Assembly (NCBI RefSeq): GCF_024298765.1
Contig: NZ_CP101210.1
From: Escherichia coli
Lineage (GTDB): Bacteria > Pseudomonadota > Gammaproteobacteria > Enterobacterales > Enterobacteriaceae
Reading direction: 5' to 3' (one strand)
Length of the DNA stretch: 64,000 bases
The notes beneath the pieces are model-generated. The model searched no databases. It was not told the DNA's origin and saw only the letters and a list, made by a program, of their open reading frames with translations. The position numbers and the translations under genes were made by a program. Shown here piece by piece: positions 4,918 to 48,602 of the stretch (the first letter of the stretch is position 1; every line of letters begins with the position of its first letter).

Positions 4918-5448
4918 ATCGATAATACGCGCGTATAAGTTCACATCATCATAGGCATCATTCAGGAACTCAGCCTGTTTCAGACAACCTTCAAGGATAA
5001 AACCATTGCGCAAAGCGACCTGGTTGCTTTGCGCATTGTCCACCCGACATTTGATCACGAAGCGTCTAAGTTCACCAGACTGAGCGTAATGATGAATCAA
5101 TGCCTGCAGCGCCTGAGAAATGATCCCCTGCCCCTGATAAGATTCGTCCAGCCAGTAGCCAATTTCAGCGGTTTTATTCAGTGGTTCAATACGATTAAAC
5201 GAGATAACGCCGATAAGTTCATCTTCTTTGAAAATCATGAACATTTTGGCATAGCCGCGTTGATGCAACATCACATTACCCTGCACCGTTTTTCGCGTGT
5301 CCTCTTCACTTTGAACAAACTGCGGCCAGTTTAGCGACTGCTGTAACCAGGTTTTATTTTTACAGATTAACTGATAAAGAGGTGTGACGTGATTTTCTGC
5401 AACAGCATGTAATTCAAGTGATTCGCTTACTTTTATCGTTTCAGTCAT
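4909..5448 (-). CDS. rimL: Ribosomal-protein-L7/L12-serine N-acetyltransferase RimL (GNAT)
   Basis: ORF 4909..5463; start set at [16 protein letters not shown] (179 aa); GNAT acetyl-CoA motif [10 protein letters not shown]. Confidence 0.9.
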
Positions 5449-11916: not shown

Positions 11917-12194
11917 TACCGTTGTCTCTCGTCCAGGTTTACTCCTGATAGAAAGTCATCGGCACTTGACGGTAATTACTTATGACCAAAAACCTCTTTG
12001 CGTCACATTTTTACAACAATTATTGCAGAGAAAATTAATGCTATTGGAATGAAGAGAGTAACGAATGGCTAAACTGGCTAACCCGAATGACGAAAAATTC
12101 TGGAAAACAGCACGCAATTTCGTAAAGTGATTATTTTCGTCCCTAAGGAAACCTCATAGGATGCCTGCGGGTGCCTGAGACTTTCTGTTTTCAG

Positions 12195-12256
12195 GCTAAC
12201 CGGGAATCAGAAAGACGAAGGCCCCGACCGATATTTCTATCAACCGAGGCCAACGA

Positions 12257-12267
<11 letters not shown>
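12195..12267 (-). ncRNA. sokB: Putative SokB antisense RNA of the hokB/mokB locus (position inferred)
   Basis: Expected antisense RNA over the mok start region; candidate promoter TTGCCG-N18-TAAGAT on the minus strand with start near 12267; 3' end not defined. Confidence 0.3.
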
Positions 12268-12464
<197 letters not shown>

Positions 12465-12879: not shown

Positions 12880-12943
12880 CTTCCGATGTAGACCCGTATT
12901 CTTCGCCTGTACCACGGGTCGGTTTTAGTACAGGCGTTTTCTT
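12880..12943 (+). ncRNA. rydC: RydC small RNA (Hfq-dependent)
   Basis: 64-nt sequence cttccgatgtagacccgtattcttcgcctgtaccacgggtcggttttagtacaggcgttttctt matches RydC as I remember it; convergent with cybB. Confidence 0.8.
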
Positions 12944-28334: not shown

Positions 28335-29046
28335 ATGCGCCTATAAGGCTCTCTTACCAGCCGCGCCCTAACAGGCGCACACGATCTGACATTTGCATCC
28401 AACTTCGTTACTTACGGCCCGTAAACGGGCTGCCCGGATAGGGAATCGATAACTGCTCTCCCATTTTATCCTCTTCAAGCTGGTGCTTTATGTAATCCTG
28501 TATCTTCGCCGTGTTCTTACCCACCGTATCGACGTAGTACCCTCTGCACCAGAACTCTCTGTTCCTGTATTTGAATTTCAAATCACCAAACTGCTCGTAA
28601 AGCATCAGACTGCTTTTCCCTTTCAGATATCCCATAAAGCCGGATACACTCATTTTGGGCGGGATCTCCACAAGCATATGGATATGATCTGCACAGCATT
28701 CAGCTTCAAGAATCCGTACGCTTTTCCACTCACACAGCTTTCTCAAAATACTGCCTATTGCTCTACGCTTCTCTCTGTAGAACACTTGTCTTCGGTATTT
28801 TGGCGCAAAAACTATGTGATATTTACAGTTCCATCGGGTGTGCGCTAAGCTCTTTTCGTTCCCCATTGGGACCCCCTTTTGATTTCTTGTTTGACACTTG
28901 CAGTTGCCAGACCGCAAGGTGTTTTAACAAATCAAAAGGGGTTTTAATAACTGGCTCAAAGCTGAAAGCTTTCCGGAACCCCCAGCCTAGCTGGGGGTTT
29001 TCTGTGCACAAACAAAAGGGAAATGCATCTTTCCCTTTTGTATATT
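28335..29046 (-). mobile_element. IS200-type insertion sequence (IS200/IS605 family), ends approximate
   Basis: Y1 transposase gene plus upstream hairpins (aacccccagcctagctgggggtt; aaaagggaaatgcatctttccctttt); no terminal inverted repeats expected; ends estimated from ~707-bp size. Confidence 0.8.
28408..28866 (-). CDS. tnpA: IS200 transposase TnpA (Y1 / HUH family)
   Basis: 152 aa from MGNEKSLAHTRWNCKYHIVFAPKYRRQVFY... with HxH motif (HIHMLVEIPP). Confidence 0.9.
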   Translation of the reverse strand: MGNEKSLAHTRWNCKYHIVFAPKYRRQVFYREKRRAIGSILRKLCEWKSVRILEAECCADHIHMLVEIPPKMSVSGFMGYLKGKSSLMLYEQFGDLKFKYRNREFWCRGYYVDTVGKNTAKIQDYIKHQLEEDKMGEQLSIPYPGSPFTGRK

Positions 29047-40189: not shown

Positions 40190-40218
40190 ATGCACTGGAT
40201 AAGGATTATCCAATTCTA

Positions 40219-40327
40219 AAAAAAAGCCCGGACGACTGTTCGGGCTTGTCTTTTTATATGTTGGAAAATCAGTAGCAATGCAATGGCCCAACAGAAAATA
40301 AAATCTGTGACAATAAAGGCATATAAC
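40219..40327 (-). ncRNA. micC: MicC small RNA (OmpC-repressing, Hfq-dependent)
   Basis: Reverse complement reads gttatatgcctttattgtcacagattttattttctgttgggccattgcattgc... ending in hairpin gcccgaacagtcgtccgggc + U-run; between ydbK and ompN. Confidence 0.85.
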
Positions 40328-40554
40328 CCGCGCAGAATAACGTATAGCAAATTAAAAGTATAATTTTTATTTTGTATGTATTATCTTCAATACATTCACC
40401 AGACTTATTATCATTTCCGTAGAATTATTTGATTAAGGTTTTACTTAAGGCGTAACAAATGATATTTATCGGCTAACTGAACTTCTCCTTTAGGATGTTT
40501 TCACTCCCCGAAATGGGGATAAAAGGCAAATAAAATAACTAAAGGATTTATTCA

Positions 40555-41720: not shown

Positions 41721-41747
41721 CTGCTTATTCTTCCTCCTTTGATCTAA

Positions 41748-42263
<516 letters not shown>

Positions 42264-42270
42264 CACTAAC

Positions 42271-42295
42271 GCCCGCACATTGCTGCGGGCTTTTT
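42271..42295 (+). terminator. Rho-independent terminator of uspF
   Basis: gcccgcacattgctgcgggc + ttttt. Confidence 0.8.
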
Positions 42296-42438
42296 GATTC
42301 ATTTCGCAAATGTGCTGACATTTTCCCCTCTAATCCGTACCATACACGCCACAGTTTTTATATCAGATTTCTTATGCTGGGCGTTCCGGCATGACGCATA
42401 CTCTTCTGATGCCATATAACGAATTGAGTCGCTTTTAA

Positions 42439-43374
42439 ATGTCGCAAAATCAAGAAATTAGTAAGAAAGAACAATACAACCTGAACAAATTACAAAAACG
42501 TCTGCGTCGTAACGTGGGCGAAGCCATTGCTGACTTCAATATGATTGAAGAAGGCGATCGCATCATGGTTTGCCTCTCCGGGGGTAAAGACAGCTATACC
42601 ATGCTGGAAATTCTGCGCAATTTGCAGCAAAGCGCGCCAATCAATTTTTCGCTGGTGGCTGTTAACCTCGATCAAAAGCAACCGGGCTTCCCGGAACACG
42701 TTCTGCCCGAGTATCTTGAAAAGCTGGGCGTTGAGTACAAGATTGTGGAAGAGAACACTTACGGTATCGTGAAAGAGAAGATTCCGGAGGGCAAAACCAC
42801 TTGCTCACTGTGTTCTCGTCTTCGTCGCGGTATCCTTTATCGCACCGCAACGGAACTGGGGGCGACGAAGATCGCGCTGGGTCACCATCGTGACGATATC
42901 CTGCAAACGTTGTTCTTAAATATGTTCTACGGCGGCAAGATGAAAGGTATGCCTCCGAAACTGATGAGCGATGATGGCAAACATATTGTGATTCGTCCGC
43001 TGGCCTACTGCCGCGAGAAAGATATTCAGCGCTTTGCCGATGCAAAAGCGTTCCCGATTATTCCGTGCAACCTGTGCGGTTCACAGCCTAACCTGCAACG
43101 TCAGGTGATTGCTGACATGTTGCGTGACTGGGATAAACGTTATCCAGGGCGTATCGAGACGATGTTCAGCGCGATGCAGAATGTGGTGCCGTCGCATCTG
43201 TGCGATACCAACCTGTTCGATTTCAAAGGTATTACCCACGGTTCTGAAGTGGTTAACGGGGGTGATCTGGCGTTTGATCGCGAAGAGATCCCTCTACAAC
43301 CGGCGGGTTGGCAGCCTGAAGAAGATGAAAATCAGTTGGATGAGTTACGGCTGAATGTGGTTGAAGTGAAATAA
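42439..43374 (+). CDS. ttcA: tRNA 2-thiocytidine(32) synthetase TtcA (intact)
   Basis: 311-aa ORF with PP-loop SGGKDS and CxxC motifs. Confidence 0.95.
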
Positions 43375-43502: not shown

Positions 43503-44876
43503 TTATTTTAATAACCGCACCCGGCACGTTTTTCCTTTAATCTTCCCGCCCTGTAACTGTTTCCATGCTTTATGAGCAACAGCCTGACGCACCGCGACAT
43601 AGACATGCGCCGGATGCACGGCGATTTTGCCAATATCTGCGCCATCAAGCCCGATATCTCCTGTCAGCGCACCTAATACATCACCCGGGCGCATTTTGGC
43701 TTTTTTCCCGCCATCGATACATAACGTTGCCATTTCTGCTTCCAGCGGCACAATGGAACTATTAACTGGCGGCGTTTGCCAGTTAAGTTTTATCTGCAAC
43801 ATGTCAGAAATGATATTGGCCCGCTGTGCTTCTTCCGGGGCACAGAAACTGATCGCCAGACCGCTATTTCCTGCACGAGCTGTACGACCGATGCGATGTA
43901 CATGAACTTCAGGGTCCCACGCCAGCTCAAAGTTCACCACCAGCTCAAGCGATTTTATATCCAGACCACGCGCAGCAACATCAGTCGCGACCAGTACACG
44001 GGCGCTACCGTTAGCAAAACGTACCAGGGTCTGATCGCGATCGCGTTGCTCCAGATCGCCGTGTAACGACAATGCACTTTGCCCTACTTCATTCAGCGCG
44101 TCGCAGACAGACTGGCAATCTTTTTTGGTATTGCAAAACACCACGCAAGAGGATGGCTGATGCAAGCTTAATAACCGTTGCAACAGAGGAATTTTGCCTT
44201 TGCTGGATGTCTCATAAAATTGTTGTTCAATAGGTGGCAGAGCATCTGTTGAGTCAATTTCAATCGCTAAAGGATCGCGTTGCACTCTTCCGCTGATTGC
44301 GGCGATGGCTTCCGGCCAGGTTGCCGAAAACAGAAGCGTCTGTCGAGATGCTGGCGCAAAACGGATGACATCATCAATGGCATCGCTAAATCCCATATCC
44401 AGCATGCGGTCGGCCTCATCCATCACCAGCGTATTCAACGCATCCAGTGATACCGTGCCTTTTTGCAGATGATCCAGCATACGGCCCGGCGTTGCCACGA
44501 TAATATGCGGCGCATGTTGCAACGAATCACGCTGCATACCGAACGGTTGACCACCGCACAACGTCAAAATTTTGGTATTTGGCAGAAAACGCGCCAGCCG
44601 ACGCAATTCACCTGCCACCTGATCCGCCAGTTCACGCGTAGGACACAGCACTAAAGCCTGGGTTTGAAATAGCGACGCATCAATTTGCTGTAACAAGCCG
44701 AGGCCAAAAGCCGCCGTTTTGCCGCTGCCGGTTTTCGCCTGCACGCGAACATCTTTTCCGGCAAGGATCGTCGGAAGCGCGGCGGCCTGCACCGGCGTCA
44801 TGGTTAAATAACCCAACTCATTAAGGTTCGTGAGTTGGGCGGGAGGCAAAACATTCAGGGTAGAAAAAGCGGACAC
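43503..44876 (-). CDS. dbpA: ATP-dependent RNA helicase DbpA (DEAD-box)
   Basis: 457-aa ORF (GTG start) with Walker A TGSGKT and DEAD motif. Confidence 0.95.
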   Translation of the reverse strand: MSAFSTLNVLPPAQLTNLNELGYLTMTPVQAAALPTILAGKDVRVQAKTGSGKTAAFGLGLLQQIDASLFQTQALVLCPTRELADQVAGELRRLARFLPNTKILTLCGGQPFGMQRDSLQHAPHIIVATPGRMLDHLQKGTVSLDALNTLVMDEADRMLDMGFSDAIDDVIRFAPASRQTLLFSATWPEAIAAISGRVQRDPLAIEIDSTDALPPIEQQFYETSSKGKIPLLQRLLSLHQPSSCVVFCNTKKDCQSVCDALNEVGQSALSLHGDLEQRDRDQTLVRFANGSARVLVATDVAARGLDIKSLELVVNFELAWDPEVHVHRIGRTARAGNSGLAISFCAPEEAQRANIISDMLQIKLNWQTPPVNSSIVPLEAEMATLCIDGGKKAKMRPGDVLGALTGDIGLDGADIGKIAVHPAHVYVAVRQAVAHKAWKQLQGGKIKGKTCRVRLLK

Positions 44877-44905
44877 AATTTATTCTCGTGGTCATCGACG
44901 CAAAG

Positions 44906-45079
44906 TCAGCAGGCGCGTATCCTCGCAGATCTACGCTCACGATGCGACAATTTAATCGGTTCTTCGTCGGGTGGTGGGTCAGGCATGGGTTGCGGGCGAG
45001 GGATCGGATCGGGCACTGGAACAGGATCGCCAGGAATCGGTTCAGGGACAGGAATTTGCAAATAAATAAGTGTCGTCAT
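44906..45079 (-). CDS. Candidate small proline-rich protein (57 aa), unannotated in the ORF track
   Basis: Hand-translated MTTLIYLQIPVPEPIPGDPVPVPDPIPRPQPMPDPPPDEEPIKLSHRERRSARIRAC; SD GGAGGG 4 nt before ATG; ends 30 nt before dbpA start. Confidence 0.35.
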   Translation of the reverse strand: MTTLIYLQIPVPEPIPGDPVPVPDPIPRPQPMPDPPPDEEPIKLSHRERRSARIRAC

Positions 45080-45136
45080 ATTTCCCTCCGGTCATTGGGT
45101 GGACTCTTAAAGGGTAGACGCTGACAAATAACAGGC

Positions 45137-45258
45137 AAAAAAAAGCCGACTCATCAAAGTCGGCGTCGTACGAATCAATTGTGCTATGCAGTAATTCAAA
45201 AAAGGAAGTAAGACAATATGGAGCGCAACGCCCATCGCTTGACGTTGCATTCACCTGC
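45137..45258 (-). ncRNA. fnrS: FnrS small RNA (FNR-activated)
   Basis: Reverse complement reads gcaggtgaatgcaacgtcaagcgatgggcgttgcgctccatattgtcttacttcc... ending in hairpin gccgactttgatgagtcggc + U8; between zntB and dbpA. Confidence 0.85.
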
Positions 45259-45293
45259 AAGAGAGATATTGCCCTGAATGGGTAGAGAGTTTA

Positions 45294-45307
45294 TTGACTT
45301 CGCTCAA
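45294..45307. promoter_or_regulatory. FNR box (TTGAC-N4-CTCAA) centred ~42 bp upstream of the fnrS 5' end
   Basis: 8/10 match to TTGAT-N4-ATCAA at class II spacing. Confidence 0.6.
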
Positions 45308-45353
45308 ACTTTGCGGCGTTTTTGTATACAGACAGCCGGGAAAATTGCTTTTG

Positions 45354-46358
<1,005 letters not shown>

Positions 46359-47844: not shown

Positions 47845-48408
47845 TCAACGGCTGCGCTTAGCGTGGCGCTCCCAGTTTTCTTGCTTCGCCTGCGCCGTTT
47901 TACGTAGTGCGACGTAACACGCCCCGCTGCCGCCATGATGCGGTAGCGCGGTGCAATATGCCTGAACATCATCAAATTCGGTCAGCCAGCGCGCCACATA
48001 GCTGCGGACAATATTGGCATGCGATTTATCATCCCGCCCTTTACCATGAATAATCAGCACGTTACGCAAACCATCCGCCATGGCTTGTTGAATGAAACTG
48101 AACATCATTTTGCGGCACTCTTCCACCGGCTGGCGCAAAAGATTCAGGCTCGCCTGTTGCGGATATTTACCACTGCGCAGCTTATCCAGCACCCCATGTT
48201 GCAACCCTTCCCGCCGAAACTCCAGCGGCTGACTTAGCGGGATGATGTCGAGAAATCCGGTGGTGAGGAAATTATCAAGTTGCAGCGTGTCGATACGCTG
48301 CGGCGCACGTTGGTTACGCGTTGGATGCCAGTGGACATCTGTAGCACGTTTCAGCGGCTGGACATCTTCCATGGCGTCAAGAAACAGCGATTTGTCGTCA
48401 AGGTTCAT
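47845..48408 (-). CDS. smrA: Smr-domain endonuclease SmrA (YdaL)
   Basis: 187-aa ORF, synteny convergent with dgcM. Confidence 0.9.
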   Translation of the reverse strand: MNLDDKSLFLDAMEDVQPLKRATDVHWHPTRNQRAPQRIDTLQLDNFLTTGFLDIIPLSQPLEFRREGLQHGVLDKLRSGKYPQQASLNLLRQPVEECRKMMFSFIQQAMADGLRNVLIIHGKGRDDKSHANIVRSYVARWLTEFDDVQAYCTALPHHGGSGACYVALRKTAQAKQENWERHAKRSR

Positions 48409-48602
48409 GTAACCTCCTATGCACCTTCACACGTCGTGATTCAGACGGGTTAATTGTTCATACTTACTGCATCGTTCCCTTCACAGATTGAAACAATACT
48501 CTACTTCATACCTGTGAGTATCTGCGCAGGCGGGGCATTTTATACTAGCCTGTTAGCAGTATCGAACAGTTTAGCCCGAGTTTAATTCAGCACAGGCTCC
48601 GA

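Follow-up and report, generated by a model that had tools for sequence, protein, structure and literature searches.

The fnr gene encodes the oxygen-sensing [4Fe-4S] transcription factor FNR, and it is established that the small RNA FnrS depends on Hfq and targets mRNAs of aerobic metabolism. For Escherichia coli K-12, Myers et al. (2013; PMC3688515) place the top-scoring FNR site of fnrS at -42.5 and an FNR site of fnr (b1334) at -0.5. Both genes have a ChIP-seq peak in their data, and FNR is listed as activating fnrS directly and repressing fnr directly. Class II sites are defined in the same study as those centred at -41.5 +/- 4. Anaerobic, FNR-dependent expression of FnrS and Hfq-dependent repression of its targets are known for K-12 through the two papers cited there as [48] and [49].

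The DNA examined here, referred to as the window, is a stretch of 64,000 nucleotides from E. coli (NCBI RefSeq assembly GCF_024298765.1, contig NZ_CP101210.1). A sequence-only reading had placed fnrS and two FNR boxes in it, and had treated them as known biology that confirms annotation and orientation. That appraisal was well founded. The circuit is identical to that of K-12. The window almost certainly carries the canonical E. coli FNR–FnrS circuit within a segment of E. coli chromosome, and nothing was found that contradicts this interpretation. The present analysis established sequence identity, where the boxes lie, how the fnrS box position is conserved, and RNA structure; occupancy by FNR (ChIP-seq) and whether it activates or represses were measured on the identical K-12 sequence (PMC3688515).

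The fnrS gene and its terminator

The features at the fnrS locus are as follows.

45137..45258, minus strand: fnrS, 122 nt, with its 5' end at 45258 and the end of the 3' U-run at 45137 (Rfam RF01796 and identity to K-12 b4699)
45137..45164, minus strand: intrinsic terminator of fnrS (terminator scan, Rfam structure line and MFE fold)
45354-46337, minus strand: zntB, directly upstream of fnrS
44906-45079, minus strand: ynaL, a 57-aa proline-rich small protein (Pfam PF23677, E 2e-40)

A cmscan search of the whole window against Rfam 15 returned a minus-strand match at 45141-45258 (134.8 bits, E 4.4e-24) to RF01796, which is named 'frnS' in Rfam and described as a fumarate/nitrate reductase regulator sRNA. 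The match spans positions 1-119 of the 119-position model, is untruncated and exceeds the family's gathering score (60). Read on the minus strand, 45137-45258 is GCAGGTGAATGCAACGTCAAGCGATGGGCGTTGCGCTCC...GAGTCGGCTTTTTTTT, identical at 122 of 122 positions to b4699 of K-12 MG1655 (NC_000913.3 1409129-1409250). The proposal that the reverse complement of this interval is FnrS is therefore correct, and its coordinates were exact: 45258 is the 5' end, 45137 the last T of the tail and 45307 the outer edge of the upstream box.

Identity to K-12 continues for 81 nt 5' of the gene. The first upstream mismatch, at -82, and two positions 3' of the terminator make up the three flanking substitutions that distinguish the two loci, with no mismatch inside the gene or its promoter (to -81). 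Many E. coli chromosomes match an 801-bp region around fnrS at 100%, and the locus occurs in 5393 out of 5426 complete genomes of this species. The gene is annotated in the K-12 MG1655 record, between zntB and ynaL/dbpA, and is absent from the annotation of the PGAP records. Its K-12 neighbours zntB, ynaL and dbpA are the same in the window, where the gene order zntB - fnrS - ynaL - dbpA is kept.

The terminator hairpin GCCGACTTtgatGAGTCGGC occupies 45164-45145, with a run of eight T directly after it at 45144-45137. The terminator scan gives a stem of 8 pairs, 5 of them G-C, with a 4-nt loop, and scan and fold agree on the arms GCCGACTT-tgat-GAGTCGGC ahead of the eight T. The RNA thus ends in a terminator and U-tail, as expected of an Hfq-binding sRNA. 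The MFE structure and the Rfam consensus also agree on the overall fold: after a 5' stem-loop comes a U-rich stretch that is single-stranded, then a small hairpin in the middle, and last the terminator. The MFE is only modestly better than that of shuffled sequences (z = -1.67) and was given no weight as evidence; sRNAs whose seed regions are long and single-stranded commonly give z-scores of this kind.

The fnrS promoter

Two elements were assigned upstream of the RNA.

45294..45307, minus strand: FNR site of the fnrS promoter, TTGAGcgaaGTCAA, with the structure TTGAG-cgaa-GTCAA (sequence, K-12 identity, Myers 2013 and conservation)
45266..45271 (-13 to -8), minus strand: probable -10 hexamer CAATAT of the fnrS promoter (from column conservation)

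The FNR box reads TTGAGcgaaGTCAA on the minus strand at 45307..45294 and TTGACttcgCTCAA on the plus strand, the latter carrying the letters TTGAC-N4-CTCAA that had been placed about 42 bp from the 5' end of the RNA. Its computed centre, 45300.5, is at -42.5 relative to a +1 at 45258, where +1 is the K-12-annotated 5' end; transcription starts were taken from the K-12 annotation and the literature. This position falls within -41.5 +/- 4 (PMC3688515), which upholds the assignment to class II with the refinement that the centre is not the canonical -41.5 and that the box fits TTGAT-N4-ATCAA at only 8 of the 10 specified positions. The K-12 sequence studied by Myers et al. is identical to the window at fnrS, and the FNR ChIP-seq data that had been proposed as a check do show published K-12 peaks both at fnrS (-42.5) and at fnr (-0.5) (PMC3688515).

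At 8 of 10 consensus positions the fnrS motif is unconvincing when taken alone. Sites that match TTGAT-N4-ATCAA with at most two mismatches occur 64 times in the window, compared with 43.6 expected from shuffled sequences. The stricter pattern TTGAYN4RTCAA is found exactly once, at the fnr box, against 0.52 expected, and at least one match arose in 44 of 100 shuffles. Because such statistics are weak for both boxes, the bare motif was set aside, and position and conservation were used as evidence. What gives the fnrS and fnr boxes their meaning is where they lie, how they are conserved and what published experiments show, and not the occurrence of a motif in 64 kb.

No recognisable -35 element was seen in the fnrS promoter, and a consensus scan of 44850-45450 returned no complete sigma-70 promoter, a result that fits an activator-dependent promoter lacking a -35 element.

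Conservation of the fnrS locus across Enterobacterales

One genome per species was scanned for the conserved FnrS segment, and 120 loci were recovered. Of these, 115 from the Enterobacterales were usable as fnrS; two chance matches outside the order and three loci that were too short upstream were left out. The genera covered include Escherichia, Citrobacter, Salmonella, Enterobacter, Klebsiella, Serratia, Yersinia and Erwinia, together with Pantoea, Pectobacterium, Dickeya, Edwardsiella, Photorhabdus, Arsenophonus and others. The gene zntB lies directly upstream of fnrS on the same strand in 114 of the 120 loci.

When the 100 nt upstream of the RNA 5' end were searched for their best FNR-like motif, its centre fell at exactly -42.5 in 110 of the 115 loci, as it does in the window; the exceptions include three Yersinia (-41.5) and one further locus (-43.5). 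Among 113 unique upstream sequences, the half-sites TGA and TCAA of the box are conserved at 80-90% or more and the spacer at 30-50%. The -10 region columns G-14, C-13, A-12 and T-8 are at least 90% conserved in the same set (80-90% or more where stated jointly with the half-sites), and the roughly 15 nt that separate the box from the -10 region return to a background of 30-50%. The fit to consensus among orthologous boxes ranges from 8 to 9 of 10, and many of them, at 9 of 10, are better than that of E. coli.

An unusual box was seen in Enterobacter sp. EA-1 (CP025776.1), the only fnrS locus with a 3-nt spacer (TTGCGccaGTCAA). The RNA itself is conserved there; judging from its sequence, the shortened spacer should disrupt FNR binding.

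These comparisons bear on whether the fnrS box might serve mainly another protein of the CRP/FNR family (e.g. CRP) or ArcA, with FNR in a minor role. Smaller effects of ArcA and CRP on FnrS levels have been reported, and the incomplete consensus match, of a kind common in the window, would be compatible with such a role. The half-sites TTGA/TCAA and the 4-nt spacer, however, follow the FNR pattern and not the CRP pattern TGTGA-N6-TCACA, and in other species the box tends towards the FNR consensus (e.g. TTGAGcgatATCAA and CTGATcgatATCAA, both at 9 of 10). Furthermore, the box lies under an FNR ChIP-seq peak in K-12 (PMC3688515), and the papers cited as [48] and [49] in that study report for K-12 that anaerobic induction of FnrS is lost in delta-fnr and not in delta-crp or delta-arcA strains. 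A main role for CRP, ArcA or a relative at this box is therefore very improbable, and FNR is retained as its regulator.

The fnr gene and its promoter

The second part of the circuit lies on the opposite strand, with the following features.

54374..55126, plus strand: fnr coding sequence, 250 aa plus stop (250/250 identity to K-12 FNR; Pfam domains)
54341..54354, plus strand: FNR site over the fnr transcription start as published for K-12 (the -0.5 site), TTGACaaatATCAA, with the structure TTGAC-aaat-ATCAA, 9 of 10 consensus positions
54238..54251, plus strand: weak second FNR-like site of the fnr promoter, TTAAGggttTTCAA, 103 bp upstream of the first box

The encoded protein contains the Pfam domains cNMP_binding (PF00027), HTH_Crp_2 (PF13545) and Crp (PF00325), and alignment to K-12 shows that the cluster ligands Cys20, Cys23, Cys29 and Cys122 are all present. 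A near-perfect TTGAC-N4-ATCAA at 54341-54354 had been described as lying 20 nt before the fnr start, and both coordinates and spacing agree: the ATG is at 54374, with the last base of the box 20 nt before its A and 19 nt between them. The promoter is identical to that of K-12 from 54220 to the ATG, both boxes included, and the single substitution in a 231-bp comparison, at 54218 (A in the window, G in K-12), falls outside both boxes. An autoregulatory function had also been ascribed to the box at 54341-54354, and this is in keeping with its identity to the K-12 box, which is listed as a directly repressed -0.5 site (PMC3688515); the -0.5 position itself rests on the published K-12 transcription start.

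The cross-species comparison of fnr is shallow, as only 3 of the 120 loci reach the gene. From about 25 nt upstream of the box through the ATG, the sequence is invariant in these three (Citrobacter braakii, C. youngae and Salmonella enterica subsp. diarizonae), and further upstream it diverges. The weak site at 54238-54251 is identical to K-12; the three other species retain no more of it than the TCAA half. We take it to be the upstream -103.5 site of the K-12 fnr promoter reported by Mettert and Kiley (2007, J Bacteriol); a full-text literature search on the fnr -103.5 site returned nothing relevant. An apparent 13-nt tandem duplication (CAGACCTATGATG) was seen at the fnr start codon of S. 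enterica subsp. diarizonae CCUG 30040T (about 5359-5378 of locus L103). It creates a second, out-of-frame ATG upstream and is either real or an assembly artefact.

With both boxes in hand, it can be asked whether they might be chance palindromes without function in this strain, fnrS then being constitutive or not transcribed. The unimpressive bare-motif statistics are what such a reading would predict. It is hard to reconcile, however, with a position that is fixed at fnrS in 110 of 115 species despite an unconserved spacer, with a block around the fnr box that is invariant across Escherichia, Citrobacter and Salmonella, and with the identity of both boxes to K-12, where they are occupied in vivo (PMC3688515). 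The probability that the boxes are functionless is accordingly negligible, and both are treated as FNR sites in what follows.

The proposed circuit

In anaerobiosis, a [4Fe-4S] FNR dimer, the product of 54374-55126, would bind 45294-45307 at -42.5 of a promoter without a -35 element. From this class II position it would recruit and activate RNA polymerase, yielding the 122-nt FnrS (45258 to 45137, minus strand), whose transcription would stop at the intrinsic terminator. Together with Hfq, FnrS would then base-pair with mRNAs of aerobic and oxidative-stress functions and lower their expression, and an FNR dimer on 54341-54354, over the fnr transcription start, would limit its own synthesis.

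Reading in the same direction as fnrS, the small protein gene ynaL begins 58 nt 3' of the terminator, and a scan found no consensus sigma-70 promoter between the two. Partial expression of ynaL by read-through of the terminator is conceivable, albeit unlikely; if it did occur, YnaL would come under FNR control as a small protein that is induced in anaerobiosis and coupled to FnrS. A constant spacing between fnrS and ynaL was seen in just 12 of the 120 loci, which belong to Escherichia, Citrobacter, Salmonella and a few further genera, so that the coupling would be restricted to these lineages.

Gene neighbourhood and rearrangements

In a strain that matches at 100%, the gene order is ompN - uspF - ttcA - dbpA - ynaL - [fnrS] - zntB - dgcM - smrA - ... 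- ogt - fnr - uspE. Besides fnrS, five sRNA genes scored above their Rfam gathering thresholds in the window, and one insertion sequence was delimited.

12169-12320: sok (hokB/sokB locus)
12880-12943: RydC
28876-28999: STnc490
40210-40330: MicC
53191-53286: McaS
51510-52566: IS903/IS102-type insertion sequence, 1057 bp, with 33-nt imperfect terminal inverted repeats

The genes uspF and ttcA are adjacent (41829-43374), from which it follows that the Rac prophage is missing from the window. In K-12 this prophage separates the two genes, and fnrS and micC lie ~28 kb apart; in its absence they are ~5 kb apart. Between ompN and uspF, at 41739-41752, there is also an FNR-like site (TTGATctaaATTAA, 9 of 10), ~84 nt ahead of the uspF ATG (41830). 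Induction of uspF (ynaF) by FNR has been reported. The main text of Myers et al. (PMC3688515) contains no mention of uspF, ynaF or the further window genes looked for there.

Relative to K-12, the abgRABT operon is cut to short abgR and abgT remnants (within 47845-54179), and a three-gene island lies between smrA and mcaS, encoding a DHA2 MFS permease (48603-50117), an HlyD-family protein (50114-51145) and an AraC-family regulator. As a result, mcaS (53191-53286) is only ~1 kb from fnr. The insertion sequence interrupts the regulator gene, which is intact in strain 2014C-3338, leaving an N-terminal portion with the cupin (51239-51520) and a C-terminal portion with the HTH (52602-53120). The inserted element contains a DDE transposase ORF (51566-52534, minus strand) and is bordered, within 51501-52575, by a 9-bp target duplication, AAGCGGAAA.

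Comparison with known systems

The fnrS/fnr circuit is already known in all its parts, and its description here is correct but ordinary. Its value is one of annotation, as it fixes the identity (E. coli), orientation and gene order of this part of the window, and fnr, fnrS and both FNR sites are intact and identical to K-12 despite an otherwise rearranged neighbourhood. A small quantitative addition is that across the Enterobacterales the FNR box of fnrS hardly ever departs from -42.5 while the sequence of its spacer varies.

At fnr, the box that underlies negative autoregulation in K-12 is identical in the window. At fnrS, the arrangement resembles that of the class II FNR promoters narG, dmsA, nirB and ydhY, in which the FNR palindrome likewise lies over the -35 region and the -35 element is likewise poor. 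The canonical class II centre is -41.5, whereas that of fnrS is displaced by one base further upstream, an offset that is conserved across the Enterobacterales and shared with the FNR site of ydhY, which is also at -42.5 (Myers et al. 2013; PMC3688515).
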